Shown here one piece after another: positions 1 to 64,000 of a DNA stretch of 64,000 nucleotides (positions within the stretch are counted from its first letter, which is position 1; each line of letters begins with the position of its first letter). Position numbers and translations under genes: made by a program. This DNA is from Tubulanus polymorphus (lineage: Eukaryota; Animalia; Nemertea), in the NCBI RefSeq assembly GCF_964204645.1, contig NC_134028.1, positions 18,235,653 through 18,299,652 of the forward strand. The letters are read 5' to 3'. The notes under the pieces were generated by a model. That model had not been told where the DNA came from. It searched no databases and worked only from the letters and a program-made list of their open reading frames with translations.

Positions 1-550
1 AATTCATATTGGAAATATAGATAAATGGTTTCATATAATTTTAAAACCAGGATTATATAATTTAGAAACATTAGCTCAAGAAATTAATCGAAGAGCACGG
101 TTGAAAATTAGAAGAGATGATACATTTTTAATTAGATTTATAAAAAGTGATAGCACAAATAAAATTAAAATAAAGGTATATGATGAAAGTCAACATGCAT
201 TTATGGTAAAAAAACCTATAGCTAAACTGTTAGGAATTGCACCAGATACTGTTACAGGAAACATAGATGGTAAATCAAATATAATACCTTTTACACACTT
301 TTATATTTATTGCAATTTAATCGAGCCTACAAAAACATTCGAAGCAACTAAAGAAACAATTTGTAATTCTAGTATATTAAATATTTTACCATTAAAGAAT
401 GTTAAACAATTTGGAACGCAAATAAATTATAATTTAACAGAATGTGATTTCAAACCATGCATTTCTCAATTTAATAATTTTAGATTAGAAATAAGAAATC
501 ACAATGGATATTTAATTGATTTGAATAACTTTCCTGTAATTTATGACTAG
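1..550 (+). CDS. Putative minor capsid (penton) protein, 5'-truncated by the window edge
   Basis: FYIYCNLIE...ILNILPL...FRLEIRNHNGYLIDLNNFPV resembles the C-terminal pattern of Polinton/adintovirus pentons; genomic context. Confidence 0.6.
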   Translation, partial: IHIGNIDKWFHIILKPGLYNLETLAQEINRRARLKIRRDDTFLIRFIKSDSTNKIKIKVYDESQHAFMVKKPIAKLLGIAPDTVTGNIDGKSNIIPFTHFYIYCNLIEPTKTFEATKETICNSSILNILPLKNVKQFGTQINYNLTECDFKPCISQFNNFRLEIRNHNGYLIDLNNFPVIYD

Positions 551-587
551 TTATAAGATGTAGAGAGTAATTTTTTTCACTATATAA

Positions 588-944
588 ATGAATATAACTG
601 TTGGGCCGAGTATATGTTTTGGGTTTGATTTTAAACATGAGAAAGAAATGAAATTTAACATTAATGATGTAATTACACATATCAAAAATATTGCATTTTC
701 TAATGAAACAACATTTGAGTATGAAACAACAATAGATAAAGAAACTTTAAATGTAGAAAAGATTACTAATTTAATTAGAGAATCTTTAAGATTTTATGAA
801 TTAGATGAAGATTTTATCATCGATGATATTAAAAAAATAATAATTGAAATATATACAAATGAAACTAGTAATGAAATAAATGTTGAATTAATCATAAATA
901 AGATAACTAAATATTTTGATGATAGTAATTTTTTTGATAAATAA
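588..944 (+). CDS. Polinton hypothetical protein (118 aa)
   Basis: Intact ORF with ATG inside TAAATG, preceded by a T7 run. Confidence 0.6.
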   Translation: MNITVGPSICFGFDFKHEKEMKFNINDVITHIKNIAFSNETTFEYETTIDKETLNVEKITNLIRESLRFYELDEDFIIDDIKKIIIEIYTNETSNEINVELIINKITKYFDDSNFFDK

Positions 945-1166
945 ATGAGTGATAATAAGTGGATAATAACTGGATTATATAATGGAGCATTACTATCAGT
1001 TGGAACTGTTGGTTATTCAATGGTATTAAAAAAAGTATTTAAAATGGGAAGTGTTAATATTGATAGATTTGATATAAATGATATTTTAAAATCAACATTA
1101 GCAGTTACTTTATCTAATTTAACTATTGATTATTTGGAAAAACAAAAAGATATTCCTCCCATATAA
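945..1166 (+). CDS. Polinton small hydrophobic protein (73 aa)
   Basis: TAAATG start; two hydrophobic/amphipathic segments. Confidence 0.65.
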   Translation: MSDNKWIITGLYNGALLSVGTVGYSMVLKKVFKMGSVNIDRFDINDILKSTLAVTLSNLTIDYLEKQKDIPPI

Positions 1167-1190
1167 ATACATAATTATTTTACTAAATAA

Positions 1191-1613
1191 ATGGCTTCTG
1201 CAGTTATAACTATTATAGGATCAGCAATTGTTAACGCTTTAGCATTTACTGGTGGTGGATATTTATTCAAGCATATTGATAAAAATGGTTCATTAACAGA
1301 ACAAAAAAGACATAACTTAGCATTAGAGAAATATAATAAAGCAGCAGAAGAATATAGAGAAAAACGACGAAACTATATGGGTTACATCAATAAAGAATTA
1401 TATGATCAGAAGATTTCACATAGAGATTTTGAATCAGTTGATGATGCAATGAGTTTATATAACGCGGTAACAAATAAAGAAAAATTACATCTACATAAAC
1501 CTACAATATCAGATTATTATACCCCAAGTAATGAACAACAGAAATATGAAATAATATGGATTTTAGGCGGAACTGTTATTGTTATATTTGTTGCTTATAA
1601 GTTTACTAATTAG
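1191..1613 (+). CDS. Polinton membrane protein (N- and C-terminal hydrophobic helices, central coiled coil)
   Basis: TAAATG start; MASAVITIIGSAIVNALAFTGGGYLF and IIWILGGTVIVIFVAYKF. Confidence 0.7.
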   Translation: MASAVITIIGSAIVNALAFTGGGYLFKHIDKNGSLTEQKRHNLALEKYNKAAEEYREKRRNYMGYINKELYDQKISHRDFESVDDAMSLYNAVTNKEKLHLHKPTISDYYTPSNEQQKYEIIWILGGTVIVIFVAYKFTN

Positions 1614-1632
1614 TAATTTTTTTGCTAAATTA

Positions 1633-2067
1633 ATGGAAGATAAAGTTGATAATATTGATATTATTCCTCACGATATAAATAAAACTAAATTAAAAATATA
1701 TTTAGAAAAACAAATATTAGAATTTGAAAGTGACTTAAAGATAAGAAAGATAAAATATTTAAAAAGTAAAATTATATATTATTTGATTATAAGTGGTTCG
1801 GTTACAATTAGTTCTGTAATAACATTTCTAGCAATATTCAGTCCATTAACACCTTTAGCTATATCAATTGGTGTATTAGGATTAAGTTCAAGTGTTTTAA
1901 CTGGTATAAGTTCAAAATTAAATATAAAAATTAATAAAGAAAAAATTAAAACTAATATAAAAGAAATTAATAAATTAAAGAATACACTAGATTATATAAT
2001 AAGTTTAAATGGCCATATAACAGTTGAAGAACAAGATAAATTATTAAAAGAATTAATAAATTATTAA
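1633..2067 (+). CDS. Polinton two-TM membrane protein (true start probably MEDKVD at 1633)
   Basis: The in-frame ATG at 1633 follows the shared T7-N6 promoter motif; hydrophobic hairpin IIYYLIISG...LGLSSSVLTGI. Confidence 0.65.
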   Translation: MEDKVDNIDIIPHDINKTKLKIYLEKQILEFESDLKIRKIKYLKSKIIYYLIISGSVTISSVITFLAIFSPLTPLAISIGVLGLSSSVLTGISSKLNIKINKEKIKTNIKEINKLKNTLDYIISLNGHITVEEQDKLLKELINY

Positions 2068-2083
2068 TTTTTTAGTTATATAA

Positions 2084-3154
2084 ATGGCAGATAGTTTTCC
2101 AAAAGCTTTCCAATACAATAAATCAATTAAATATAATATTCCTGCAATAGATTTTAAGAAAAATATTACATAAAGAAATGAAGTTTTAAATTCATTAATT
2201 GATTTATATATTTATGTTACTGAAAGTAATAGTTTTCATGTAAAGATGGAAAATATATTTCATGTGTATACAATTAATTTTGAAAATTTAAATGAGGCAA
2301 AACAATGGTTATTAAAATCTAATATGAAGTATTGGCAGAACCAATTAAATTTTGCTGTTTATTGTGCAACAACAGGATGTGGAATTAGTTGGAATGATCA
2401 TTTGAATAAACCAAGTTTACCATTGATGTTATCACTTTTTAGATTTCATACTTATTTTCAAATAAAATTAATATTAGATGAATTAGAATGTCCTTTACCA
2501 GGTTCAAAATATTTTAAAGAATTGAATAATAATATTAATTTTTCTAAGTTTTATAAAATATGTAATGAATTTAATATTAATTCAAATAACGATTTTAGAG
2601 CAAAAATTGGAACAATACATTGGAACAACACTTCATTCGATGCGCAGAAACAATTTAAAGTATTATTTGAAGATTCAATTCATAATGATAAAAATAGATC
2701 GATTCCAGAAAACATTGTAAGATATCAAAATTATTTAGATAAATCACATATTAGATTAAATTATTGTATAGGCCCTTATCTATTCATTATTTCTAATGAT
2801 TTGGTATTAAAGATGGGAAACATAATTGGTTACAATAATCTAATTAAAACTGCCACAATAAATAATTCATTTTGATTAAATGATATAAATAAAAAGATTA
2901 TTACTGCTCCAAACTTAATGGAAGGTGAAAAAAATAAAAAACATTTTCAATCAACTGAAACTAAAACTAATAATATTAAATTAAATAATGATTCTAAAAT
3001 AAAAGATTACAATACATCAGAAAATATTAGAACCGATAATATTCAACATGATATAATTAAAAATAATGATGATAATAAATCCCATGAAAATGCTAAATTA
3101 GCTTTAACTTGTATAGGAATTGTAATCGGAGGAATATTATATTTTAAATTTTAA
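2084..3154 (+). pseudogene. Polinton protein with C-terminal TM; two premature stops
   Basis: TAAATG start at 2084; one frame joins ORFs 2246-2875 and 2918-3154 across TAA 2171 and TGA 2873; motif WQNQLNFAVYCATTGCGIS. Confidence 0.7.
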
Positions 3155-3170
3155 TTTTTTTATTATGTAA

Positions 3171-4595
3171 ATGGCAGAAGGCGGAGAAGATATTGGAATT
3201 GATACTTTTGGTGACGCTCCCGGTATAAGTGATGAACAACCACCTGATTTTGATGAAACAAGTTTTAGGATTGATAATAAAACAGCATATAATTCTAATT
3301 TAACTACACCTGAATATATTGATAAAACACGTTCAAAGATAAGTACTGAAAATGAAGTACCAGAATTAACAGGAAAAGTATTTAAATATAATAAAATTGC
3401 TAGTGATTTTAAACCAATGTTAAAAAGATCTGGTTTCAATATAACAAATAAAGGTATGGATTATTTAGTAGAAGGTTTAAAATATTTTAATGGTGATTAT
3501 TATTAGGAATTGAAAGGCGACTATTATTTTAAGATTTCAAATCTTAAAAGTACCGATAAAATAATAAAACAATCAACTTTTAATTTATTAAAACAATCAA
3601 AAATTAAGAAAATCATTAATGATGTTATAACTGATGTTACACAAAAAGAAAGGGATGATAATATAAAAGAATTTAAACAAAGAAATGATTATTTTTTTAA
3701 GATAATTAATGAAAATTTAGAACCAGAAACAATTACTAAAGAAGTTATAAATTCCAAAACTAGTAAACTTAAATCAAATAAAGTTCCAATTGAAAAACTT
3801 TTACCGTATGGATTACTTGATGCAACAGATCAAGAATTAGAAGATTTAGATATATTTTCTGATAAAGCAATTAGAGAAATTATTAGTATAAGAAATGAAA
3901 CTGATAAAATTGCACATAATAAAAGTATAAGAGATATTAAAATTAACAATTTAGAAAAAGAATTAACTGATAAAAATGAAGAAATAGAACAACTAAAGTC
4001 TGATCAAGTAATTGATGAAATAGAATATAGGCAAAAAGAATTACGTTTAGAAAAAGAAAAAGATGATTTAGAATATAACATAGAAAAAGAAGAAATTAAA
4101 TTATTATTAAAATCATATGATTATAATATTAATAGATTAAAAGATGTTTTTAAAAGATATCTAATAAAACCAGATTCTAAAATATCATTGAAAGATAGAA
4201 TAAAATTATTATTTAAGTTTGAAGGAATAACAATTCTTTCAATTCTAACAGCTGTAACTATGGTATTTACAACAATTGGTTTAGCAATGTCAAATGCTTT
4301 AAAATCTACTCCTACTCCTACTCCCAATAAACCAGATAAACCCCCGAATGATAATAATTCTATACAAGATAAAGTTAAGGATGGTTTAAAGAAATTAGCA
4401 AAATATTTATGGGAACTATCTAAAAAATCTGCTGCAGCATTGCCAGGAGTTATTGCATCAATTGTTGGTTTTATATTGAAATCTGCAGGAAACATTATTA
4501 ACTTTGCTGCGGAACATATTATTTTATTTCTAATTACAGTTGTAAGTGCTATTATTTTTGGGTTAGTGAATATGATATCAAAAAATATCAAGTAA
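3171..4595 (+). pseudogene. Polinton long coiled-coil protein with C-terminal hydrophobic helices; premature TAG at 3504
   Basis: ORFs 3171-3506 and 3510-4595 are in the same frame; TAAATG start; coiled coil followed by ITILSILTAV... and ALPGVIASIVGFIL... helices. Confidence 0.7.
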
Positions 4596-4635
4596 ACATG
4601 ATCAAAAATAAATAATTAATTTTTTTGTTAAATAA

Positions 4636-5884
4636 ATGAGTGGGAGTTATATCAATCCTTCTAAGAATCATAGAATATCTAATGCTATTAAAGCAGAAAG
4701 ATCACATCATATAATCACTCATAACCCTTCTAACATTAATCCTGATGAAACTTTATATGTTTGAATCCCTCGATTAACACAAAATACTTTTTATGTTCCA
4801 AATAGTATTTATTTATCAGCCGATATAAAAGTAATCGGTAATAATAATAATTATGTTGTTGATAATGTTGGAAGATATTTGATTAAAAAATTAACTATAA
4901 AGATTGGTCCAGAAACAGTTTTCTCATTAGATGATTATAATTTATTTATGCATTATAAAGATTTATGGTTAACTAAAGAAAATAGGAATAATATGATATT
5001 TCAAGGCATCCAATCAGAAAACCAAAATAAATTAAGATCAGAAGCTAATGACGCAATAGTAACTCGTACCGCAGATAATTTGATAAAAAAGATTTATGGA
5101 AGCAAATATAAAATTCCATTAGACTTTGAATTCATAAATAATAATGCGCCTTCATATAGATATGCAATTCAAGAAGACGTTATATTCGAAATAACATTTG
5201 CTCCTGTTAATGAAATTGTAATATCTAGCGTTGTTAAAGATATGAGTTATAAATTATCGAATATATGTTTAGAATATGATACAGTAACTGATGAAAATAT
5301 TTCAAGTATAATTCAAACCAAATACAATCAAGGATTTACATTATTATATGATTATATTGATAAATTTAAAACTGTAACTATCAATGCAAATGATGAAATT
5401 ATTAATGAGAATATTAACTTCCCAAGGAGATCTATTAAAGGTATATTAATATTTTTTTACCATTGCAACATATTCTAATGGTGCAATACAGGTTGATAAG
5501 TATTATAATCCTGAAATAACAAAAGTAGAAATAACTATCGAAGGAATAGCAAATAAAATATTTTGTCAAGGAATGAGAATGATAGATCAATGGCCAGAAA
5601 TTAGAAAACATTTTATGAATGAAAAAGTAAAATCATCTGAAAATTGTAACATTAATCAAATTGATTATTATACTGGTAATAAATACGCATTATGGTTAGA
5701 TTTTAGAACAACAGAGGATAATTCATTACATGGTTCTGGAAAAAAATTACAAAACACTAAAGATGGAATACAATTATTCATGACAAAGAAAAAAGGAAGC
5801 CTAAATTTCAAAATGCATATTTATATTATATCTGACGCACAATTAAATATTGTAAATTCACAATTAGATAGTGTTATGTATTAA
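4636..5884 (+). pseudogene. Major capsid protein (double jelly-roll), disrupted by TGA at 4762 and a frameshift in the T-run near 5452
   Basis: TAAATG start; ~415 codons when rejoined; HNPSNINPDETLYV*IP, LSNICLEYDTV, RSIKGIL, YALWLDFRT and YIISDAQLNI are Polinton MCP-type motifs. Confidence 0.75.
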
Positions 5885-5933
5885 GTTTTATGAAATATTA
5901 AAATTTTAACTTTAATAAAAAATCTTATATTAA

Positions 5934-7070
5934 ATGGAAGGAGGTAAAGTATATAAACATATTCCATACATCGATACACATGAAAATAATGATGGTTTAT
6001 ATTATGTAATACCTTGTAATATAGCTTTGATATTTGATCCTATTTTCAAAATTTATAAAACTCAACTAATAGAAATCGATAATAATAAAAGTGAAGTTGT
6101 TGATAATTTAAGTAATGTAATTGATAATAATGTAATACCTTCTACATCTAATAATGTAATACCTACTACATCTAATAATGATAAGATTGAACCTGATATC
6201 AAAACCAAAACGAGAAATGAAAAATATTGTGATGTATGTAAGAAATATATATCATATAAAAATTGGGCATCACATAAGAAATCAAATAAACATATAGAAA
6301 AAGAAAAGAATAATAATGATAATAATATATCTGATAATAATATAATAGATAATATCATAGATAATGTTAATACAATTGAAACAAATGATACAATAGATAA
6401 TATAACAGATAATGTTGATACAATTGAAACTAACGATAATGAAACAATTGATGATTCTAAAAAACATTGTAACATTTGTGATTTAGATATTTCTAAAAGT
6501 AATTTTTCTAAACATAAAAAATCTCAAGCGCATATCGAAAATGAAAGGAAGTTAGAAGAACATGAAAAGAAATTAAAAGAAATAGAAAGAAATAAAATGT
6601 GCCAATATTGTAATAAAAAAATTGAACCTGTTGATGAAAATACTCATTATAAATCAAAGTTACATCTAATTAATGTTTATAAAATGGTGAGTATGATACC
6701 ATTGTTAAATAACCCAAATAAATATATCAAATATTTTAATCCTAAAACTAACCAATATTATATATTCTATAAGTTGTTATTTGATAAATTATTAGCTTAT
6801 GCAGAAGATAATCCTAAACAAATATATAAATTATTATATTTTAGAAAAATAGATTTAAGTTATCTGATAAATAATTTTGGACATCATTTTGATTTTGATT
6901 ATGATGATTTTGATGAATACTTAGAAAAATTAAGAGAAAAAGCTAATATACCTACTAATTATTATGTTAAGACGGCTCAATTAAAATTAATACATCTACC
7001 TAAGACTTTTGGTGAATTAGATATAAACAGAGATGATTTTATAAATATATTAGAAACAAAATTAGAATAA
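5934..7070 (+). CDS. C2H2 (matrin/Met-type) zinc-finger protein with Asn/Asp-rich tandem repeats
   Basis: Three CxxC...H...H fingers (CDVC..HKKSNKH, CNIC..HKKSQAH, CQYC..HYKSKLH); 24- and 48-bp internal repeats. Confidence 0.8.
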   Translation: MEGGKVYKHIPYIDTHENNDGLYYVIPCNIALIFDPIFKIYKTQLIEIDNNKSEVVDNLSNVIDNNVIPSTSNNVIPTTSNNDKIEPDIKTKTRNEKYCDVCKKYISYKNWASHKKSNKHIEKEKNNNDNNISDNNIIDNIIDNVNTIETNDTIDNITDNVDTIETNDNETIDDSKKHCNICDLDISKSNFSKHKKSQAHIENERKLEEHEKKLKEIERNKMCQYCNKKIEPVDENTHYKSKLHLINVYKMVSMIPLLNNPNKYIKYFNPKTNQYYIFYKLLFDKLLAYAEDNPKQIYKLLYFRKIDLSYLINNFGHHFDFDYDDFDEYLEKLREKANIPTNYYVKTAQLKLIHLPKTFGELDINRDDFINILETKLE

Positions 7071-7072
7071 TT

Positions 7073-7441
7073 ATTATAAAACTAATTTATATAATTATAT
7101 ACTAGACGTACGTAAGAATCGTAAAAATCCAAGAATCCAAGAAATCTTACTTTCTTACTCGTACGTCTAGTACATAGTTAAATATAATAGTTTTCATAAA
7201 AATTAAAAACATAAAATTATTAATCTAAGTATAGAAATAGTTATAATATAATCTGTTTTTATTTTTATTAAGAGAAAACATATAATTTATTCATTTTTAT
7301 ATAATTCATTTAATAATTTATATATCTATGTACTAGACGTACGTAAGAATCTAAGAATCTTACTTTCTTACTTTCTTGGCAAGAATCTTACTTTCTTACT
7401 CGTACGTCTAGTATATAGATATATAAATTAGTTTCTATAAT
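7073..7441. terminator. Paired hairpins between convergent gene blocks
   Basis: TACTAGACGTACG...CGTACGTCTAGTA at 7100-7172 and again at 7331-7413, with longer imperfect AT-rich arms; terminator role is inferred. Confidence 0.55.
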
Positions 7442-7458
7442 ATTCCAAATTATAAATT

Positions 7459-8070
7459 TTATTTTATAAATTTATATTCATAGGGAAATTGTAGTCTCAG
7501 TAATAATTTTGAACCTTTATTATTCTTTAATTTATTCATATATTCATCATGTAATTCAGTAGGTATAATTTGATTTTCTTCCAATGATTGTTGTATGGAT
7601 TTTTTATCTTTGTTATAAAATAAAACTAGAAATCTTATATTCTCTCTAAAGTCTTTAACAATTGAATTATATTTTTGATTTAAAACCCATGTTGTTATCC
7701 CGAAATGTCTTCCAGAGAAAGCTAAGTAACATAACTCACTTTCTCTCACTTTTGAATCATGTAGATTAGCGCAATCATCTATAATGAATAATGTATTTGA
7801 TCCTTTATAAGTATCAATTGCTATTTTTATACAATTATCTAAATTTTCTTTTACTGTTTTAGGATTTAATATAATAAACTTTTCTATCTTAACTAAATCT
7901 CTATTATATGTTTTATTCATTTCATAAGTAGGGCAGAATAATATTATATTATCAAAATGATTCTTATAAATAGTTTCTAACAAGTCTAATATGAAATGAG
8001 TTTTACCACAGTTGGTTACTCCAGTAACTAACATATTATGCGGTTCAAATATAAATAAATCTTTATTCAT
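7459..8070 (-). CDS. A32/FtsK-like DNA packaging ATPase
   Basis: Walker A GVTNCGKT, Walker B LFIIDD, SGRH motif; intact. Confidence 0.9.
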   Translation of the reverse strand: MNKDLFIFEPHNMLVTGVTNCGKTHFILDLLETIYKNHFDNIILFCPTYEMNKTYNRDLVKIEKFIILNPKTVKENLDNCIKIAIDTYKGSNTLFIIDDCANLHDSKVRESELCYLAFSGRHFGITTWVLNQKYNSIVKDFRENIRFLVLFYNKDKKSIQQSLEENQIIPTELHDEYMNKLKNNKGSKLLLRLQFPYEYKFIK

Positions 8071-9148
8071 TTATTCTTTTAATTTTACTAGATAAAATCC
8101 ATTCATTAAATTTATCATCGTATCCTTTATATTTCACCAGAGAATACTTTTTTCCTTTAAGAGTTTTTGTTTTCAATACTTTTTCTATTTTGTATTCTAT
8201 TTCATCTGGATTTGGTACAAGTAATAATTCTTGTTCATAGAAATAACCTAATATTTCTTCATCTTTTATATCTTCTAATTTATAAACAAATGGTTTAGTT
8301 AATATTATCTTTTTAATCTTAAATATTTCTTCTGTAAAATTTGGGGTATAACCTTTATAAAATGTTTGTCTATATTTAGATATTCTTACGTGTTGTCCTA
8401 TTTTAGATTTAGGTTCTCCGAAATCATGTGTAACAAACGCTCCATATAGATTATTCCAAACTATTTCTGAATTATCTTCTTTTCTAGCTTGTATAGGTTT
8501 CATATTTATAGAACTATGGTTAGAATTATTATAACCTTTCACTAAATCATCTAATACATCGATATATTTATATGTTTCGTTAGCAGTAAAATATTTCCAC
8601 ATTCTAGTTTTCAATGTTTTATTAAATCTTTCTATAATAGATGCTTTTTTATCTGAGTGTGTTGAAAAATATTTTACATCGTTATCAGATAATAGTTTTT
8701 TGAAATGTTTGTTATAAAATTCCTTACCTTCATCAAATTGTATCTTATCTGGAATAGCTTCTTTAAATATAGATTTAAAAGCATTTGTTACTTCTATACC
8801 AGTTTTATTTTTGATTGGAATTGACCATGCGTATCTACTGAATATGTCTATAACATTCAATATCCAGAAATATCCTTTGTTGTATTCTTCTAAGTTCTTC
8901 ATGTCAATTAAATCTGCTTGCCATTGTTGATCGATATATGAAACCATAACTTTTCTTGTTCAAAAAGTTTTATCCATTTTCTTGTGGATTTGATATGTTG
9001 GTTGATTTTGTAACCATGATTTCAATTCACTATATTTTATATCACCATTATCAGATTTAATTTTATTCCATAATTCTGAAACGTTAGAATATGATACTTC
9101 ACTTTCTGGGTTATAATATAAATCTCTTAAATATTGTTCTTTTTTCAT
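8063..9148 (-). pseudogene. Retroviral-like (rve) integrase with C-terminal chromodomain; premature TGA at 8960-8962
   Basis: ORFs 8960-9148 and 8063-8947 are in frame; WQADLIDM, QFDEGKEF, IERFNKTLK; chromodomain YKIEKVL...LVKYKGYDDKFNEWI. Confidence 0.92.
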
Positions 9149-9154
9149 TCTATT

Positions 9155-9544
9155 TTAATCCATTAATAATAATCTAGATTTAGTTTCAATGGCTTTATGA
9201 TTTGACTTATTTTCTGGTATAATAGGTTTATTGTCTGTACACGGATAACTAAGTTTCCGATTATCATTGGAATCATCTTTATCATCAGATTTGAATTTTG
9301 ATTTATATATTACAACAGATAATATAATAACTGTTACTAATCCAATTGTAATATATAAGTAATTATTACTTCCAGCATTAGAAGAATTAGATGGATTATT
9401 ATTTGAATCAATATCAGGTGATTCATTTATATCAGTTAATTTCTTTTTCTTAGCTTTTTTTAATTCTGAAGATCTTTTACCTAATTCTCTTGCCCATTTA
9501 ATTTGTTTTTCAGATCTAACCTTTTTCTTAACGCCATCACTCAT
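9155..9544 (-). CDS. Polinton protein with basic N-terminus and single TM
   Basis: TAAATG start; KKAKKKK; YLYITIGLVTVIILSVVIY. Confidence 0.65.
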   Translation of the reverse strand: MSDGVKKKVRSEKQIKWARELGKRSSELKKAKKKKLTDINESPDIDSNNNPSNSSNAGSNNYLYITIGLVTVIILSVVIYKSKFKSDDKDDSNDNRKLSYPCTDNKPIIPENKSNHKAIETKSRLLLMD

Positions 9545-10145
9545 TTATTTTAGTTAATTTTTGTTCTGATTCATTTTCTGTTTCGACGTTTGGTTGTAGT
9601 ACAGCGTCATCTGTTTCGTTCTTACCTGATTTATATTCCATAGGCTTGATATTCGAAAATGTTATGACGCCAGTAGAAATTAATGTCATAACCGATCCTA
9701 ATTGGAATGAAGCATAACCGACCCATTTTTGTAATTCAGTCATAACTAAGTAGTCATTTTTCAAATCACTATATAATTTATTTTCATCATTAATTGGTAT
9801 TAACTGGTTACATAATTTTGAATAACATTTGACAATACCATCTGAAATAGAATCATTTATTCGGGCTAATCTAGCTTCTTCATAAATCTTAAAATATTTT
9901 ATTACTTTATCTGGTTTCATAGAGTCTAGTTCTTGAAAAGTAATGATTCTATTTAAAAACTCCTTAGTTTTTTCACCGGCAATCAATAGTTCTAGATGAT
10001 GCTTACAATATAAATAGTATTCATAATCTATATTACAATTAACTTGAATAGAATTAGAAACAACTGTATCTTTATTATCACTAATGCCCAAATCATCTAA
10101 TGTCTTTTCAATATCAATACTATTCTTACTCGATTTCTTTGACAT
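9537..10145 (-). CDS. Polinton hypothetical protein (202 aa)
   Basis: Intact ORF; TAAATG start; 8-nt overlap with the next gene. Confidence 0.65.
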   Translation of the reverse strand: MSKKSSKNSIDIEKTLDDLGISDNKDTVVSNSIQVNCNIDYEYYLYCKHHLELLIAGEKTKEFLNRIITFQELDSMKPDKVIKYFKIYEEARLARINDSISDGIVKCYSKLCNQLIPINDENKLYSDLKNDYLVMTELQKWVGYASFQLGSVMTLISTGVITFSNIKPMEYKSGKNETDDAVLQPNVETENESEQKLTKINE

Positions 10146-10244
10146 TTATATTAGAGAAATTTAATAAGAAAAATATCATAAGTATTATAAAATGATACTC
10201 GTATCTCTTTGGGTTAATACTAGTTAGTTAAAGGTAAAGAATTT

Positions 10245-10336
10245 TAGTATTAGTTATTGTTTTTTGGAGTTTTTTTATTTGTGATATAAAGTATTCTTTT
10301 GAAAAGAAAGTATTAAAAAAACAATAACTAATACTA
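10245..10336. terminator. 21-bp perfect inverted repeat downstream of the HNH gene
   Basis: TAGTATTAGTTATTGTTTTTT (10245-10265) / AAAAAACAATAACTAATACTA (10316-10336). Confidence 0.5.
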
Positions 10337-10389
10337 GCTAGTTGAAGATATGTAATTTTTAATACTTTTTATTTAAAATCTATTATTCT

Positions 10390-11058
10390 TTAACCACTCA
10401 TTAAAGACTCAACGTATTGTTCATTATTTGGATCATTGTTCCATTGATCAATAAATTTCTTTGCCTTTGTTAACTGTTCTAAATATAACTGTAAATCTAG
10501 TTTATTAGATTTAATTATGTTTTCCTTCTTTTCTAAAGGTCTTAGATTCTTCCAATTCCAAATAAGTTTTTTATTGTATTCATCATTCATGTTAAATTTA
10601 GATATTGGTAACAGGTGATCAATATGGTAATAATCCCCATAATTATCTATATTCATTTTATCATCGAATTGAAATATAATCCATGATTTGAGAAATTCAT
10701 CTGAACAACCCAATAAATTAGATAATGTTTCTGAATGTGTTTCTTTGTTGAATAATTGTGTTAATCTAGTCCTTAAACATTGTTTCAATCTAAAATTAAG
10801 ATCTGTTTGATATCTTTCTCTCATATATTCTGCCATATAATAATTATAATGTTCTATATTATCTTCTCGGTATTGTTTGGTATATAGTTTAAAACAAGTT
10901 TTACAGCAATATTGAAAACCATCTTTGCTAATCTTACGCTTACTAAATTCTGTTAAAGCTAATTTATCTAATTCACATTTAGAACACTTCTTGTAATATA
11001 TATTTATAACACCAGCGTTATTTGTAATATTGATGGTTTGTGGTTGTTCTGATTCCAT
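10390..11058 (-). CDS. HNH endonuclease with N-terminal Cys4 zinc ribbon (type common in large DNA viruses)
   Basis: CSKC...CKTC; YHIDHLLP...WKNLRPLEKKENIIKSNK. Confidence 0.8.
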   Translation of the reverse strand: MESEQPQTINITNNAGVINIYYKKCSKCELDKLALTEFSKRKISKDGFQYCCKTCFKLYTKQYREDNIEHYNYYMAEYMRERYQTDLNFRLKQCLRTRLTQLFNKETHSETLSNLLGCSDEFLKSWIIFQFDDKMNIDNYGDYYHIDHLLPISKFNMNDEYNKKLIWNWKNLRPLEKKENIIKSNKLDLQLYLEQLTKAKKFIDQWNNDPNNEQYVESLMSG

Positions 11059-11264
11059 TTATTATACATATTTTTTTACTAAATTGATTTTAGAAGTTCA
11101 ATGATTTATATCATGCATTATTTCAATCACACTTTACTAACACTTTTAATGTTTAAAAATCTAACTCACACAAATATGAATATTGAAATAATGTTGTAAA
11201 TATATACTTTTGTATTGAATAATCTGTCAATTTAAATGTTATTCATGTATATGAATATTTTAAG

Positions 11265-11674
11265 AGTAATAGGGGTAATGGGCTTTCAGGTTAAAGGTTG
11301 AATGGTCGAGTTCATTAAAAACAAATATTAAAAGTAATTTAAAACTATAATATATTTTCATAACCGTGTGTATTTCAGTTGAATAATAGAATAATTATTA
11401 TTATTAAAATATATTTGATTATATGAATTTGTGTATTGTAAATAAATCAATTGGTCGCGGAGCGGAGCGGTAGCGAAGTGGAGCGACCAATTGATTTAAT
11501 ACAATATGCTTTTTAAATTTAAATTATTGATATCTTAGAATAAATATTTAGTTATAATATAAAATGCACACGGTTATGAAAATATATTATAGTTTTAAAT
11601 TACTTTTAATGTTTTGTTTTTTAATGAGCTCGACCGTTCGACCTTTGATCTGAAAGCCCATTACCCCTATTACT
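11265..11674. repeat. 410-bp imperfect terminal palindrome of the Polinton
   Basis: ~110-bp outer arms (AGTAATAGGGGTAATGGGCTTTCAG / CTGAAAGCCCATTACCCCTATTACT) and an inner 16-bp stem TAAATCAATTGGTCGC/GCGACCAATTGATTTA around a GA-rich loop. Confidence 0.92.
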
Positions 11675-16800: not shown

Positions 16801-16866
16801 TTAAAGCTTTTTTAGATATTTAGACCCATGAGGGTAGTAACCGTAATAGATGTTGTTTCTCTTCAG

Positions 16867-19800
16867 CTACCGTCTTAGTGTCATTGTTCCCTCCCACTGA
16901 TGACTACCCATACTTCAACAGTCCCTGGACTTTGGCGAATCCAACAATTACAATAAACATGCCCGAAGAGGAACCGATTGCACCTAGAGAAACCCTTGTA
17001 ACTACTCTAGTAGCTCGAGATGCAATTACAAATCAGAAACTGTCAAACTACACAGTTGTACCAGATTCTAATGCTGATGGATATTTCCGGTTAGATAGGC
17101 TAAATGGTAAATTTTTGACTATTATGATAAGCATTATATTCTTAATCTCATTATGAATTGTCCCATTCTTTATAATTTGATCTCTTTATTTCAGCATCTG
17201 GATTCTGTAAGAATTTAACCATAGTTTGTTTCTCTTTGTATGCAATAGAACTTTCGTTTTTCTGTCTTGTTTTTGTGTGTGGGTTTCAGCATAGACGTTG
17301 TTGATGCAGTGATGTTCTTTGCTTGAAGTGCTTATTTCTTCTAAATGGTAGATTATATTTAATCATCGTTTAGAATAAGTATAGGAACATTGATTTCTTT
17401 TTGTTTGCAGGTCACGTATATTTGAATAAACGTGTGGACTACGAGACTTTAAGTAAGAAATCCATTGGCTTTGAGGTAGAAGTTAATACCATAAGAACTC
17501 CAGTGCGAACATCAAAAGCTTACATTGTTTTGCAAGTTCAGGATTTGAATGATAACAATCCTCAGTTCTATCGTCCAAATGTGAGTCATCATGTAATGTT
17601 GTGTCTCCTGTAATCGCAACCTCACATTAACTTTAAAGACCAAGTAGGACTTGATTTGTCAAAATGCTTATGATCTTGATCTTATTCAATAGTAACTTAA
17701 CCCCACTACCGTAGGCGTAATAGAAAAAGGAATTCACCTTTTGACCTTAATTCGCGCACCTGCGAGCACCTGGGGAGCACCTGTGGATGGCAGGTCGTTC
17801 ACGTTAGCATTATCGTTGACTGGTCTTTTTTGCAATATACCCGCTAAAGTCGATTAATTTTTCTATCAATTGATAAATAAGCCATATATTTTCTATCAAA
17901 ATGATAAAATAATTGAAAAACAATTTATTTGCATAAGAAAATAAACACGACACTACGTCGTCAACCGGTCGCATGTAGAAAAACATGTCAGTCAGCTGAT
18001 TAGAAGTGTGTTAATTTCGCAAAGTTCTTGGCACAGTAATAGCTTTCAACCCGGTTCCACCAAGTAATTCACATATATTCTATAAGAGAACATCAATAAC
18101 TAAAGATGGGGCCAACGATGAAAGGTGAGTTTCCGTATTTAGGCTTCAAAAAATTAAAAATTTCATGTGCAATAGTGATGTGCGCCGTCAATTCAAATCA
18201 ATCAATTCGACTTCCAATTAAAGTATCAATCGACAGCCACCTCAAACCGCATCATAAGTCGGCCAAGGGAATCTTGGCTGTGGTTTGGGTTGTCTATAAG
18301 CCCATTATGACATCAAAAAAGATAAGAATCATAGAACGATTAAGAGTTAAAAGGCCTTAACATCTAGTTTCCTGACTGGAGAGTATCTAGGGTAGTTTTA
18401 CAAGACTATGAATGATTTCAGATATATCCTTTCATTTCAGTTGATTGATGATCCTTACTTCATTGAAGTATAGAGCAAAAGTCTGTTGACGATAAGCAAA
18501 TTTGGATGATAAGATTGTCAATAACTACGTTTAGCATCAACGTTACTAGTAAGTGCCATCTAGAATGCTGGGCTGTCGGCCTTTCATTGTTGCCGCCTTG
18601 ACTTATAAAATCCTGATTCGAAATAGATTGATTTGGGGCATAGTGCATCATTTGAAAAAAGATTTGAAATTCATGACATATTTTCACACAGTTAATGTGT
18701 CCGTTCACTTCTGTACACATATTCACGTTTCAGGATCTCATATGTCTTTTTGCTGATCAATTTTTAGAGATTTATAGAAAAGCTTACCACATATTTCAAG
18801 GTAATTGAAAAAAAAAAATATCAAAATTTCACATGTATGGAGAAACAGGTGATTTACTCAAATACTTCAAGTAACATCAAAATTATTCGGCATTCTTTTT
18901 TATACGATTTACATTTATTTTACAGAGATTCCATCAGAGTTTCCATTGGAAAACCATTGCAACTGCATCTACGTGGAACAGACACCAGTTGCTCTAATGT
19001 TTTCGTTGAATACAGGGCCTGGTTTTGGAAAAGACTTACAGTCTTTACATTGCTCCCTTGTAAATAGAACAATTTTGTAATTTTGTAGGGCAAAATAGAT
19101 ATTCTCGTACACGTATACACTATCTATGGTTATTCTGGTTTTGTATTTTCACTCCAGGCTAGTCTGTGTTCCTCTTGAATCGGCGAAAAAGTGGATCTGC
19201 TTACTGGGGTGGGGGTGGGGGATCATTTATCCTATGAAATTGTTCCAGTTTGTATTAAAGAATATCAGGATCGAATGAATCGAATCATGTTGCAGCCATT
19301 TTTGGCCCTGTCACAAAAAATTCAGTAGCTTACGTGATTTCCTGGATCTGGGTGCCGACACATTTGCTATGCAGTTGAATTTGCCTTTTCCTTCAATTGT
19401 TACATGAAAACTGTTCACTTTGCATGATTACCTGCATTTTGACCTCGGTAGTAAAGTGCTGCTGTACTTCTGGATGCGACTTACTGCCTTTGCATCATGC
19501 ATACTTCATACTGTGGTATGAAAAAATATTTCCACTAATGGCTATCCACCTGTTTCATCCGCTAAAGGTAAGAACCACCCTGTATTGACTCAAGTTTTTA
19601 CTTTTTTCAGGGATATTCATTTGAAATATCAGAACTGATGAGATTCCCAGCTCAGGTTGGGCAGGTGTTCGCAAATGATTTGGATAGCGGTAGCTTTGGA
19701 ACTGTTAGATATTCACTAAGTGGTAGTGGCCATCAAGCTTTTACAATTGATCCCATCATGGTAAGCTATATATGATATGATAAGCTTTTCTTTGTTACTT

Positions 19801-22800
19801 CATTTTTGAAAAATTTCTTTCCGAGTTAAGTACGCAGTCTCAAATGTTTTGTGACTTTCTCAAAATGAATAAAAAATGGAACTAATTTCTAGTCCCCAAA
19901 TCCTCAAAAACAACTTGAAACATACCGACTATGCCATAAAATCAACCTATTATCAGCCCCATTTGTGCTATTGTCTTTAGAATACATAATACTTAATAAA
20001 TAATAATTTGGCTTCAGAATACATAATACCTTCACATTTACAGATTACATTACGTTAGTAATTATATAGAATTCCGAGCTGCGTCTTCCTTGATTATCAC
20101 CAAATGACGGGACCGATATATTAGTAATAGTAATAGTTATTTGTGGTAATGTATTGGGTTCGAACTGCAGCCTGGCTTCCGGGAGTTGAACCTTCTAACC
20201 ACTCACCTGCTGCACTCATTCAATTATTATAAACATTGACAGCAGAGAAATATTCCTCCTAAGGTGTTTCGTGTCGTCTGTGATGGGGAACAGACCCATA
20301 AAACCAGAACTATAACGACTTCTTAGATGCAACGGGACTTTATTAATCAGCCATCTTAGAGTACACACTATAGTCCGGATACGGACTCAGGATAAATCAC
20401 GGAACATCTCCCTCTTTATATGAATTTATTTATTTATTTTTTTTAATGTTTGTTTTTGAATACTTATACTAATTCACGACTAAAAACCACCACCATTATA
20501 GTCTGATTGTCTAATTAAAGTTCCTTTGATTTATGCTGTGCTTATAATGACACTTTATTTTGAGGCTTGACCACCCGACCAGCATGCTTGACATAAGAAG
20601 ACGGCTGTGGATCGGTGACCACAGGTAACGACGCAGACGGAGGAGGAGGTATGTCATCTGCCTTTGACGGGACCAGCGGTTGGTCAACAATGGTCTTATC
20701 ATTCGCAACGGAAATTCCGGGAGATGCCATCGGAGGATCGGTACCACTTCTACTTGGAGCTTCGCGGACTCCATGTGGTTTCAATCGCAACTGTTGCCTA
20801 TTTCGTCGCAAACGCGTACCATTGGGTGTTTGAATCTCAAATGTTCTCTCTTTCAACCGTTTCACAACACTAGCGGGTTGCCACGCTCTGTCGCCATGTT
20901 GTGTTGGTTGCACGCGCACTACGTCTCCACGTTGAAGGGGTTTTAACTCTTTCCGATTAGCATACAATCTGGCAGCCGTTTCTATTTTCATATGTTGTTT
21001 CTTTCGGATCTCCCCCTCAATGGAGGATGCAGAATTCGGTTTAGGGAATTTGGCTGTGGTGGGTATTTGAGTCTTAGTGCGACGTCCGAAGAGTATCTGC
21101 GCCAGGCTACTCTTCAATCCTTCGGACGGAGTACTTTGCACATTAAGAAGACCAATGTAGGGGTCTTCATTACACAGAAACGACTTACGCATTAACCGTT
21201 TAGCTTGTTTTACGGCAGCTTCCGAAACTCCATTAGCTTTGGAATTTCCGGGACTCGAGAACTCATGTGAGAATCCCCAACTTTTCCCAAAGGTTTTAAA
21301 CTCTGAGGAAGTATATTGAGGACCACCATCACTCACAAATGTGTCTAGTATTCCGTGCAAAGTGATGCTTGATCTTGGCGATAACAGTCTTGGCATCAGT
21401 CAACGGGAGATAATCAAGTTCAAAGAAACCGCTCACTAGATAATGTCTATCTTTATAAATGAAAAGGTCCGAACCGACCTTTTGTCATGGCCTGCAAGGA
21501 ACATCATGCATATACAACCGTTCTTCCGGTTGACGGCCAGCGTAGGTAGAACATGTGCTTCATGATTCGATGAACTGTCAGACTTCTGCAGACATCCTTG
21601 GCCAGTATATCAACTCCCTAGCGCGACGAAGACAGGAGTTGATGCCAAGATGTCCAGCGTGTAACAGATCTTTCATCTCTGCGCGCATGCTTTTTGGGAT
21701 TACGACCCTTTCACCACGCAACACTATTCCATCTTGGACAGTGTATTCATCCCGACAGTGATAGTACGGGACTAGATCCGCCGATAGATTGACCTTCGAA
21801 TCAGGCCAACCCTTGATAACGGTCTGTTTTAACGAGGTAAGGGTCTCATCCAGCGCAGTAGCATCCCTTATCTGTTGCAAGCGATCTGGCTTGATTGGTG
21901 AGAAGTTAATCAAGTTCACAGATACGAGTTCATGATCCGGTTTCTCGGAGCAGCAAGGCCTGTAGTCGTTTTGGATCCTTATGAAGTGGTTTGTCTACTA
22001 TCGCAACGAGTGGTTTGTGATCGGTCACAATATCGATATCACGTCCGTACGTGTAGTGATGGAATTTCTCTAAACCGTAGACGATCACGAGCATCTCTTT
22101 TTCGATTTGTGCCCATCGAGTTTCGGTGTCAGCTAGGGCACGACTCGCGTACGCAACAGGACGATCACCCTGTATTAACACTGATCCAATCCCGTATTCA
22201 GATGCGTCATTTTCGAGTATCAGTTCCTTATTAGGATCATACATGGCTAACACAGGCGTTTCGGATATCAATCCTTTCACCTTTTCAAAAGATTCGATTT
22301 GCGACTGAGACCATACGAACGGCACATCCTTCTTTAGTAGGTTTCGCAAAGGAAAGGTCAGGGAGTTCAGATTCGGTATAAAACGAGTCAGGTAGTTAGC
22401 GATACCGAGAAAACGGCAGAGTTCTTCAACATTGTTTGGAGTGTTGATTTCTTTCACGGCACGAGTATTTCCGTCGAGTACAGTTCCCTTTCCTATGGTT
22501 TTTGCTAATATTTTCTAAATTTGGATTGATCGCCAATGGTTTTTCTATACGACCCGGCCCTGCGGTATTGCATTTAGCCACCGGTTCGTATCGAGGCAAG
22601 GGGAAGGCTCCAAAAAGGGGCTCTTCCTTTGGGAAAAACTCGAAATGAATTCTTGGGACCAGTGGGAGGTTGTCTGCAGCAGGCAGCAACCCATTGGTCC
22701 GACCTTTTTGGAGACGGTTGGCCCTCCCGGGTCGTCTCTCGTGGCTACCGTCTCCTTTTCCTAAGGCGACCGTGCCTGATGAGGTCACCTCCTGACATGC

Positions 22801-25800
22801 GGCCAAAACCAGGTCGGGAGGCCTTAATCTCTCCGGCTCTCAAGGAATTGGCCGAGAAGAGAGCGATAGAACCAGTTTGCAACAAAACTTCTCCTGGCTG
22901 GTTTTCTCGAATATTCATGGTACCAAAGGCCACAGGGGGTCAATGGACAGTGATAGATCTGTCATCCCTCAATCGGCACCTAGACATTCCAAGGTTCCAG
23001 ATAACCAAGGACGTGATTCAAGGGCTCCGTCCGGGTCAATGGGCGGCTTCGTTGGACCTGAAAGATGCTTACTTTCAGGTTCCAATTCACCCAAAATCTC
23101 GGCGATTTCTCAGGATAAAGTGGAAAGGCCGCCAGTTCCAATTCAGGTCTCTTCCATTTGGCCTCAGTACGGCCCCGTGGGTTTTCACCAAGTTGGTCAA
23201 GTCAGTTCAGAAGGTACTTCAGTCAAGGGGTGTTCGACTGTTCGTTTACCTCGACGACTGGTTAAAAGTCGCGAATTCGGCTCAGGAATGTCGGGAGGCA
23301 ATGAACTCAGTCTTGGACTTAGTCCAACAGCTTGTTACTGGTCACGGCTTCTAGGCTCCATCAGCTGCATGGGTCTGGTGGTGCCCTTAGGCCGCCTCAA
23401 AAGCAGGCGCTTGCAACAATATTGGAAGGTCTTCTGGTCTCAGTCGAAGGGCAACTGGGAGGCCTTGATTCCCGTACCTCGAACCGATCCGGATCTTCAG
23501 TGGTGGGCGGCAACTACGAATCTTCGGCTCGGGGTGTCACTAGCCCCGTTAGAGGCTCCAGTTCGTGTATTCACGGATGCCAGTCACCAAGGATGGGGGG
23601 CACATCTGGAGAACCGAGTCAAAGCCGGGAGATGGTCTCGCTACGAGGCGACCAACCACATAAATTTCCTAGAAATGCTGGCCGTGCGGAAGGCCCTGAA
23701 GTACTTTCACAGGAGAGTGGAGGGCAACCACGTTTGGTTAGCCACAGACAATTCAACAGTGAGGGCTTACCTTCAGAACCAAGGGGGCACTCACTCAGAA
23801 ACCCTCACAGGTCTGTCGGCCAAAATTCTTCTTCGGTGCCAGACAAAGGGCGTGTCCCTGACTGTGGCACATTTAGCAGGGAAAAGGAACGTGATGGCCG
23901 ATGCTCTGTCTCGTCGAGGTCAGGCTATTGCGACAGAATCGGTTCTCCACCAAGAAGTAGGCGATCGGGTTCGGGGCATGTTTGGCAATCCGCTGCTGGA
24001 TCTGTTTGCCACCCGGTTCAATCGGAGGTGTCCTCTGTTTGTGTCCCCGTTTCCAGACGCGGAAGCGTGGGGGGTCGTTGGCTTCTCTCTGGACTGGTCG
24101 GGGATGCATGCGTATGCGTTCCCGCCCACACCAGTCCTGCCGCGCTTACTGGATCAAATAGAGAGATCAGTCAATTGCAACATAGTTCTGGTAGCACCAT
24201 GTAGGCCGGCTCAGAAATGGTTCCTACCACTTCTCAACCTACTGTGCGACAACCCCAGGATTCTTCCGAATTTCCCATCGCTTCTGTCTCAGGGGAACTT
24301 TCGGCATCATCCAAACAGCCAGAGGTTAAATCTGCTTGCCTGGCCATTGTCCAGCGATCCTTGTCAGCTTCAGGCTTTTCAGAACAGGCTGCCTCCTTTA
24401 TCGCAGGATCTAAGCGGCCATCAACAAGTACCATTTACGATGCCAAATGGAGTCATTTTGCGGATTGGTGTGCTGCAGGGGAAATTGATCCATGCTCACC
24501 CTCTGAAGCTCAATTGGCAGATTTTTTACTGCACCTATTTGTAGTAAAAGGTTAGCAGGTCATAACTATTAAAGGTTACCGCTCCGCGATTTCTCATACA
24601 TTGCGTGCTTCTGGATGGCCAAATGTAGCAGGGGATCATCGGATATCCCAGCTGGTTGCAGGGTTTTCTATTTCCCGGCCTCGGGTACCAAGGACAGTTC
24701 CGCCATGGGATCTGTCTGTAATTTTGAAGAAGTTAATGGAGGCTCCATTTGAACCTCTTTCGGCAGCGTCATTTGCAAATTTGTCAAAAAAGACTGTATT
24801 TTTGCTGTTCTTGGCTTGCTCGGCCCGTCGCTCTGAGATTCATGCGCTTTCAGTCCGACAAGGTCATATTGTCTTTGGGCCAGCGAAGGAATTTGTTTCG
24901 CTGCGGCCTGCTTTGGAATTTTTGGCAAAGAACCAACGACCAGGCTCAGTTGGGCGTCAATGGCGAATTGAAGCCCTAAAACATCGAGTGGAACCGGCAT
25001 CCCGGACAGGTCTTTATGTCCTGTGCGGGCGTTGTGTTTCTATTTAGATCGCTCTGCTTCACGGAGGGGTTCATGGGAGCGGTTATTTATTCCGCTGCTG
25101 GATCACCTAAAGGGTGATATTTCACGGGACACAGTGGCCCGATGGGTCTCTTCACTGATCAAGGACATTTTATTGAAGGAGAATCTTTCCTCGGAGGGAG
25201 TGGTTTCTCATCAAGTGAGGTCTATGGCTACTTCCTGCGCAGCCTTTTCGGGTGCTCCGTTGGAGGAAGTCTGTCGGGCCGCCTTTTGGAATTCTCCATC
25301 GACATTCACGTCATTTTATTTACGGGATGTTTCAGAAGAGGTAGGCTCATTAGCTTCACTTGGTCCTGTTGTCATGGCTCAAGGTGTCCGTTCTTTCCGA
25401 TCGGACCCTTTAGTGTAGAATAATTATGTTGCATTATCAGGATCACAGGGGGTGTATCCTTGTACATAGTTTGGGCTCATATCTGCAAGTTTTAATTTCA
25501 CAAAATTCTGGGGGGGCCCTGAGCTGGACGGACTCACTGTGGCCAACCGGTCTTCCCTGTGCTACAGTGCTCCATTCCGTGCTTGGGTAAGTGCTCTCTT
25601 TTTCCCTCTTACCTTGCGTTTGAGCGGTGGTTTTTCTATCTACCTTTCCCACCATCCTTGTGCTAGGCTAGTCTAGCAAAAACCATAGGAAAGGGTACAG
25701 TACTCGACGGAAATATTACAATTTTTGGAACTAAAATTTGTATTTCCGAGTAGTACTTACCCTTTCCTATGGTGGGAATCCCGCCCACCTGCCCCGCATA

Positions 25801-63840: not shown

Positions 63841-64000
63841 GTAAGCTAAACTTTATGATAAACTATGCATAAGTTGGATGTATTAGGAAGGGAAGATTTT
63901 GTCCAACTTCCATAGGATTTATAAGATTATCTGTAGTATGAATCCAAGACAATTAAGAAGTAGCATTTAACAGTCAAACTTAATTGTTATGAATTGTTGG

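Follow-up and report, generated by a model that had tools for sequence, protein, structure and literature searches.

A decayed Polinton-like virus in a nemertean genome with TAAATG start signals resembling poxvirus promoters

Small capsid-encoding elements of animals have been proposed as parasites of poxviruses, namely the Polinton-like viruses (PLVs) AHEV_PLV1/2, CBEV_PLV1 and Ca_PLV1, which are associated with entomopoxviruses (PMC11296320). In protists, mavirus and the endogenous mavirus-like elements (EMALEs) of Cafeteria, together with the pacmanvirus transpoviron, are integrated or satellite elements that carry the late promoter of their helper (10.1101/2025.10.09.676808; PMC11788076), and in EMALEs the match between promoters determines whether a virophage is reactivated (10.1101/2025.10.09.676808). 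The helper dependence of animal Polintons is treated as an open question, and the main text on the entomopoxvirus-associated PLVs contains no promoter analysis (PMC11296320). Here we describe a PLV in the genome of the nemertean Tubulanus polymorphus in which most gene starts are marked by the hexamer TAAATG and many are preceded by T-rich or A-rich cores. It was found in a window of 64,000 nucleotides (contig NC_134028.1, positions 18,235,653 to 18,299,652, forward strand), which is the whole stretch of DNA that was analyzed, and all positions below refer to this window:

1..11100, no strand: endogenous PLV, right-hand part, recognized by its low GC content and gene set; the left end lies beyond the window

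The element is a decayed, integrated PLV. Positions 1 to about 11,100 have a GC content of 21-26%, versus 32-54% in the flank past position 12,000, and the element is 77% AT. The original prediction of a PLV was upheld by three hallmarks: the predicted double jelly-roll capsid, the A32-like packaging ATPase (PF04665, E 4.8e-12, Pfam) and the rve integrase (PF00665, E 9.9e-10, Pfam, in a gene that is broken in the window). Four genes are broken in this copy (ORF 2084, ORF 3171, the capsid gene and the integrase; ORF, open reading frame), and it is unable to make particles any longer. Comparison was made with 33 related loci (L001, L002 and so on), obtained from one metagenome scan matching at least 601 stretches. 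Differences from one of them, L005, lie mainly at third codon positions (33/23/68 over the three positions in the ATPase, 40/23/86 in the integrase), and the genes were therefore under selection prior to decay.

We classify the element as a PLV, not as a strict Maverick and not as an entomopoxvirus-associated PLV. With the latter it shares the double jelly-roll capsid and A32 ATPase, but those elements occur in insects, have a protease and either a tyrosine recombinase or no integrase, and are linked to their poxvirus physically, via occlusion bodies (PMC11296320), whereas the window element has an rve integrase and resides in a nemertean. A text search, as distinct from a sequence comparison, did not find three capsid motifs in the supplement text of that paper. 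Mavirus has pPolB and, like the window element, an rve integrase (PMC11296320), and EMALE clades differ in promoter motif (10.1101/2025.10.09.676808), as do the lineages described below, which have TAAATG or TATA-type starts. However, mavirus, the EMALEs and the transpoviron have protist hosts, TCTA or TATATA/AAAATTGA motifs and helpers that are known and tested, whereas the window element has an animal host, TAAATG in two classes and no identified helper; its capsid is 9-11% identical to virophage capsids (Foldseek). The Maverick-Polintons and adintoviruses (Polintoviricetes) resemble it in their rve integrase, A32 ATPase, double jelly-roll capsid and location in an animal chromosome, and one relative, L024, has pPolB fragments as well. 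They differ from it in that the window element has several additional membrane-protein genes, and adintovirus and MELD capsids rank 24th and 39th, at 10-12% identity to the element capsid. That animals also harbor PLVs not belonging to the main Maverick groups has been noted (10.64898/2026.06.19.733378), and promoters are not mentioned in the accessible parts of that paper or of 10.64898/2026.10.13.758929.

The start signal of the element is real and strong, and it resembles promoter mimicry by a virophage. TAAATG stands at 11/13 gene starts (588, 945, 1191, 2084, 3171, 4636 and 5934 on the + strand; 8070, 9544, 10145 and 11058 on the - strand), versus 14/422 other ATGs on both strands of positions 1-11300 (Fisher p 1.4e-13); the exceptions are TTAATG at 1633 and AGAATG at 9148. 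The original prediction had listed these 13 starts with their contexts, stating that the seven starts of the capsid block share a T-run, a 6-7 nt spacer and the initiator, and on re-reading the sequence all of this, including the seven T-run/spacer strings, was exact to the letter. Among non-start ATGs with only A or T at -3 to -1 in the window and related loci, TAA occurs in only 103/982, and AT richness is therefore an insufficient explanation. Stop-start coupling as the source of TAAATG was ruled out, since in only 4/75 TAAATG starts does the TAA close, in frame, a reading frame of at least 40 codons. A repeat search of the window that was blind to genes returned the promoters as its two largest repeat families; TAA usually precedes the T-run as well (repeat families D1/D2). 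Promoters are also written into the ends of upstream coding sequences (KINE-stop, RINE-stop). We discarded the reading of the T-run as a terminator for the gene upstream, since its position is fixed to the ATG and not to the upstream stop. The base at -3 is T in 96% of 78 hand-picked starts, and T is the least expected base at this position in an animal Kozak context.

Upstream of the hexamer, the starts fall into two core classes. When the window was pooled with six close loci, a T4 run lay at -17..-9 in 16/17 capsid-block starts versus 9/29 others, and an A4 run in 1/17 versus 13/29, counts that come from hand-picked starts of related genes, with inflated p-values. The T-run of the capsid block is centered 13 nt upstream of the ATG, with a T-rich core at -15..-12. 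TTTT within -17..-9 occurs at 32/70 element sites versus 11/88 TAAATG sites in these loci that are not gene starts (p 4e-6), and T at -13, which is the 10th base before TAAAT, at 8/11 window sites and 49/70 element sites overall. In vaccinia virus, a T at the 10th base before TAAAT is a hallmark of late promoters (PMC11980589), while intermediate promoters are A-rich and without the late-type T (PMC11980589, PMC5294985), with a published core that has no consensus (PMC12917281). The intermediate core is A/T-rich, lies about 12 bp before TAAA and is free of a T-run. The vaccinia polymerase itself reads TAAA (PMC12917281), and slippage at TAAA adds a poly(A) leader (PMC6211774). By analogy, the T-core and A-core classes appear to echo the late and intermediate promoters of poxviruses, with TAAAT(G) overlapping the start codon in both systems; initiation inside TAAA with a poly(A) leader would explain the T at -3, since that T would not be in the message. 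Differences from the vaccinia promoters are the stronger T-run, more A at -4, 3' hairpins and a more frequent use of TAAATG, at about 90% of element starts versus 400/850 starts in central poxvirus stretches (40 stretches). Three promoters illustrate the classes:

568..590, + strand: late-like promoter (TAA, T7, 7 nt, TAAATG)
4616-4638, + strand: late-like promoter of the capsid gene (T-run core and TAAATG)
5913..5936, + strand: intermediate-like promoter (TTTAATAAAAAA, spacer, TAAATG)

The shape of the promoter at 5913..5936 is shared with L005 and L001, and is found upstream of the minor-capsid-like gene of L002. The 11-mer TTTAACTTTAA within 5905-5936 lies 26 nt before TAAA, and in the scaffold of vaccinia G8R the distance is 27 nt (PMC12917281); the 11-mer is missing from the L005 homologue and may be chance.

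Among the relatives, the TAAATG start signal appears to be lineage-wide. When starts were defined by protein homology alone, TAAATG was found at 41/102 starts of the 33 loci, which fell into two groups: 15 loci with TAAATG at 38/42 starts and 15 sister loci with 0/50, the groups having been drawn after counting, so that the two-way split is the result. The remaining loci were L024 (2/5), L025 (1/5) and L031, which has no countable start; L018/L019 and L014/L022 are near-duplicates. Under the same rule the window scored 6/12, because inner ATGs of its broken genes were counted. The signal is kept in L011 (45% GC) and L012 (40% GC) and absent in the sister locus L016 (20% GC). In an ATPase tree of 26 rows, which omits 8/33 loci whose ATPase ORF was too short, the window groups with L001-L005 (support 100/99), and with the backbone open a single origin of TAAATG was not resolved. 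The sister loci without TAAATG (L014-L019, L021, L022, L026-L030, L032 and L033) have the same genes as the window element. TATA lies within 12 nt of the ATG at 33/50 of their starts versus 16/42 in the TAAATG group, and these TATA starts resemble the late motif TATATA of African swine fever virus and pacmanvirus (PMC11788076, PMC5294985); by this likeness, a helper switch in the sister lineages is possible. A search of IMG/VR with the ATPase found no relatives, its single capsid match (L034) was dropped as an unrelated phage, and prokaryote genomes held no relatives of the element. A direct motif scan of IMG/VR gave at least 120 matches, mostly chance phage, with one poxvirus gene and one iridovirus-like gene.

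How specific the signal is to poxviruses was assessed against viral loci. In upstream profile (T minus A, families weighted once) the element correlates with poxviruses at r 0.62, with iridovirus-like loci at 0.22 and with others at 0.24; the poxvirus profile was the closer in 477/500 bootstraps, and in 449/500 for positions -20..-8. T at -13 was found at 49/70 element, 198/278 poxvirus, 10/21 iridovirus-like and 40/81 other sites, and family-weighted T at -15..-12 was 0.74 in the element, 0.58 in poxviruses and 0.31 in the iridovirus-like loci. As judged from these sequences, the upstream profile fits poxviruses better than it does iridovirus-like loci. The iridovirus side of these comparisons consists of iridovirus-like loci without L190, L177 and L238, and the label comes from gene content, not from a named match. 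A naive Bayes classifier of poxvirus versus iridovirus was tried and set aside as uninformative; its 'pimasco' set included L190, L177 and L238, which had been labeled by eye. In the iridovirus-like loci L155, L156 and L160, AATAAATG stands at 35-44% of starts and AATAAA right before many of the other starts; our literature search found no paper describing TAAATG-type starts in these records.

The two gene blocks of the element converge on 7071-7458, where a strong hairpin follows each stop:

7074..7199, + strand: hairpin after the stop of the + block (-35.9 kcal/mol, z -7.9, 0/200 shuffles)
7314..7430, - strand: second, related hairpin after the ATPase stop (-53.8 kcal/mol, z -10.4, 0/200 shuffles; repeats D4, D11, I9)

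In L001 (3015-3130) and L005 (3530-3650) hairpins lie at the same place after the ATPase but have another sequence (z -8.2 and -9.4), so that structure is kept among the window, L001 and L005 and sequence is not; L002 has tandem inverted repeats at this place (9081-9410). We infer that these hairpins are candidate terminators of the convergent blocks. The palindrome at 10297-10378 was not significant as a hairpin (z -0.5).

With a probability of roughly 55%, we read the element as a virophage-like dependant of a pox-like helper, a large DNA virus whose cytoplasmic RNA polymerase would transcribe the element genes. The lack of an RNA polymerase gene in the window, in L002 (11.5 kb) and in the others of the 33 related loci, all of which are partial, was counted for helper dependence. 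The integrase would insert the element into the host chromosome, where it would remain silent in the nucleus, lacking Pol II promoters. Once the helper infected the cell, its polymerase would take TAAA as initiator and start inside it, and slippage would put a poly(A) leader right before the AUG. The A-core genes (zinc-finger protein, ATPase and HNH) would be expressed first, as intermediate-like genes, and the T-core genes of the capsid block later, with the hairpins terminating both convergent transcripts. The element may then have been packaged in its own capsid at the cost of the helper, as mavirus is with CroV (Cafeteria roenbergensis virus), and an antiviral benefit for the host would be a further step. 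A wider proposal, to which we give somewhat less than an even chance, is that this marine-animal Polinton-like lineage consists of virophages of an undiscovered lophotrochozoan pox-like virus that copied its intermediate and late promoters, and that the sister lineages switched helper, perhaps to an asfarvirus-like one.

Several observations weigh against a pox-like helper. TAAATG occurred at 83/921 starts of RNA-polymerase-bearing viral loci, with 7/71 loci reaching 30% (the 71 are those of 80 fetched loci that combine an RNA polymerase motif with 6 ORFs or more, a few apparent jumbo phages among them), and three of the iridovirus-like loci had it at 7/16, 6/16 and 7/20 starts (35-44%). AATAA before the ATG leans to the iridovirus-like side, at 29/70 element, 21/21 iridovirus-like and 44/278 poxvirus sites (family-weighted 0.44, 1.00 and 0.22). 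The naive Bayes classifier called 6/11 window and 39/59 relative sites pox-like, but also 60/88 non-start sites. The iridovirus-like sample comprises only 21 sites from 10 families, and the split into core classes came from hand-picked starts. When the polymerase motif was scanned for in its poxvirus form, 38 records matched; all have isolate-style ids, and no marine pox-like helper was among them. Strong 3' hairpins are known from mimiviruses and iridoviruses rather than from poxviruses. Hairpin-defined 3' ends have also been reported for yeast linear elements (PMC6211774), and such ends leave some weight on a non-pox helper. In the light of these data the original prediction held in part: the entomopoxvirus-associated elements to which it pointed do exist (PMC11296320), the likeness to poxvirus late promoters was upheld by the T at -13, and of its claim of transcription by the cytoplasmic polymerase of a poxvirus or related nucleocytoplasmic large DNA virus, the pox-like core architecture stood, while TAAATG, found in the iridovirus-like records too, is not a poxvirus-specific mark and no helper turned up.

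The alternative that survives best, although we consider it unlikely at about one chance in four, is virophage-like dependence on a nucleocytovirus that is not pox-like, such as an iridovirus-like one, with late genes that would likewise start with (A)ATAAATG and end at hairpins. The TAAATG frequency of the iridovirus-like loci (with 7/13 in L190), the AATAA flank at 29/70 element sites and the agreement of the 3' hairpins of the element with the 3'-end rules of iridoviruses and mimiviruses all speak for it, and iridoviruses of marine invertebrates are known. However, the T-core of the iridovirus-like loci is weak (0.31 at -15..-12, versus 0.74 in the element), their profile is the more distant (r 0.22 versus 0.62), and while AATAA is present at 21/21 of their sites, 41/70 element sites differ. 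Less probable still is that the element was autonomous, using the host polymerase with a factor of its own (e.g., the zinc-finger protein) or an RNA polymerase encoded in its left part, which lies beyond the window. In yeast, virus-like elements combine a polymerase of their own with a TAAAN initiator (PMC6211774) and the PLV TsV-N1 is autonomous (PMC11296320), but no polymerase gene was seen in the window, L002 or the other partial loci, TATAAA serving as a Pol II TATA box (-25 to -30, PMC5294985) would make transcription begin past the ATG, and the core position agrees with poxviruses (T at -13). That TAAATG merely serves translation, or merely results from AT richness and close gene spacing, as the 77% AT and the start at 945 immediately after the upstream stop might suggest, is largely refuted and very improbable, given its retention at 40-45% GC and absence in a 20% GC sister locus, in-frame stop coupling at only 4/75 starts, a fixed T-core enriched over non-start sites (32/70 vs 11/88), and a T at -3 that runs against the animal Kozak context.

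A near-universal two-class viral promoter makes the helper dependence of animal Polintons testable. If the helper is pox-like, such viruses would exist in the phylum Nemertea, which bears on the entry of poxviruses into animals, and if the lineage consists of virophages of pox-like viruses, Polinton promoters would be a fossil record that predicts large viruses of invertebrates. The split between TAAATG and TATA-type sisters suggests that promoter motifs may be usable to assign helpers across animal genomes. Our literature search, in which most subscription papers were outside coverage, brought up neither a paper dealing with poxvirus-type promoters of animal Polintons or with Polintons of nemerteans, nor a pox-like virus in nemerteans; it may have missed a prior mention of, or a named family for, the element capsid.

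The genes of the element are as follows:

2..550, + strand: candidate minor-capsid-like gene, truncated at its 5' end by the window edge; 39% to L002:565-1326
588..944, + strand: ORF of 118 aa, no assigned function; N-terminus common to L002, promoter of ORF 945 in its last codons
945..1166, + strand: conserved ORF of 73 aa with late-like promoter; 86% to L002
1191..1613, + strand: conserved ORF of 140 aa with late-like promoter and two hydrophobic segments (hydropathy); 76% to L002
1633..2067, + strand: predicted membrane protein of 144 aa; T7 core but TTAATG; weak SLATT-like match, below cut-off
2084..3154, + strand: conserved gene, no assigned function, broken by two in-frame stops, with about 88 codons lost versus L002
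3171..4595, + strand: gene for a long coiled/membrane protein, interrupted by a single in-frame stop
4636..5884, + strand: predicted major capsid protein (double jelly roll), its gene disrupted by a single stop and a single frameshift; 76% to the intact L005 protein
5934..7070, + strand: protein of 378 aa with C2H2-like zinc-finger motifs read from the sequence; Pfam matches all below cut-off
7459..8070, - strand: A32-like packaging ATPase, intact; Walker A GVTNCGKT, PF04665 E 4.8e-12
8063..9148, - strand: rve integrase with chromodomain, interrupted by a single in-frame stop; PF00665 E 9.9e-10, PF00385 below cut-off
9155..9544, - strand: predicted membrane protein of 129 aa, A-rich core; promoter within the last codons of the upstream gene (INE-stop)
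9537..10145, - strand: conserved protein of 202 aa, no assigned function; 60% to L005, follows the ATPase in most relatives
10390..11058, - strand: zinc-ribbon/HNH-like endonuclease gene, A-rich core; 16 homologues

The minor-capsid-like frame is open through the left window edge and its start codon lies outside the window. It had no Pfam or NCBIfam match, the model of a relative reached a predicted local distance difference test score (pLDDT) of 35, and the label, which comes from gene position and the pattern of Polinton pentons, is tentative. The L002 homologue of ORF 1633 starts with TAAATG. In L018 the gene in place of ORF 1633 (6543-7049) gave a Pox_VLTF3-like match (E 0.00064, below cut-off), probably from its hydrophobic stretches. 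The window capsid gene is assigned as a double jelly-roll major capsid protein via its intact L005 homologue, the structural model of which (pLDDT 69.7) matched iridovirus, PBCV-1, Sputnik and mavirus capsids in Foldseek (E 3.5e-15 to 2e-10). The capsid family is large, with 1191 representatives at E up to 1e-10; one cluster of capsid relatives (P0170) comprises 135 members, a large number of which lie on contigs of 0.1-1 Mb, and probably reflects a recent expansion in some eukaryotic genome. The ATPase promoter is embedded in the final codons of the integrase (INE-stop). The integrase itself, which starts with AGAATG in the window, starts with TAAATG in 7/8 of the homologues listed. For the gene at 10390..11058 the HNH match is limited to the L005 homologue (E 0.0055, below cut-off). 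The close relative L002 has a deoxynucleoside kinase (10343-10981; PF01712, E 1.7e-31) with a T-core TAAATG start, unlike the window copy, which has the HNH-like gene and no kinase in its visible part; the kinase gave no pointer to helper identity. pPolB was absent from the part of the element in the window, and PF03175 fragments were found in 1/33 related loci (L024), all of them partial. No adenovirus-type protease was found among the scanned ORFs of the window and these partial loci, tRNA and Rfam searches of the window gave no match, and no Polinton-type terminal repeats were seen in the window copy, whose left end is beyond the window.

At the right edge of the element lies a palindrome:

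11265..11674, no strand: palindrome of 410 bp with arms that are 77% alike, occurring once in the window (I1/I2), TAA on both sides

We consider it to be either a host miniature inverted-repeat transposable element (MITE) of the Harbinger type or the end of the element (a resolved terminal hairpin).

Beyond the element lies a host gene:

16860..63841, + strand: exons of a cadherin-23-like gene, in 15 collinear pieces that match T. polymorphus P0137 at 77-100% identity over residues 512-1397

The exon at 53405 matched a single protein, the cadherin-23-like protein of T. polymorphus (97%); the host is accordingly a nemertean and not an insect, an eventuality that the original prediction had allowed for. 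Residues 1-511 of the cadherin had no comparable match within the 64-kb window, and the element therefore probably sits in an upstream intron of this gene. Decayed BEL/Pao-like, Gypsy-like and DIRS-like retroelements (the last with reverse transcriptase and tyrosine recombinase), labeled by eye from their ORFs, lie in the cadherin introns at 12900-16135, 20500-28000 and 37800-42400.

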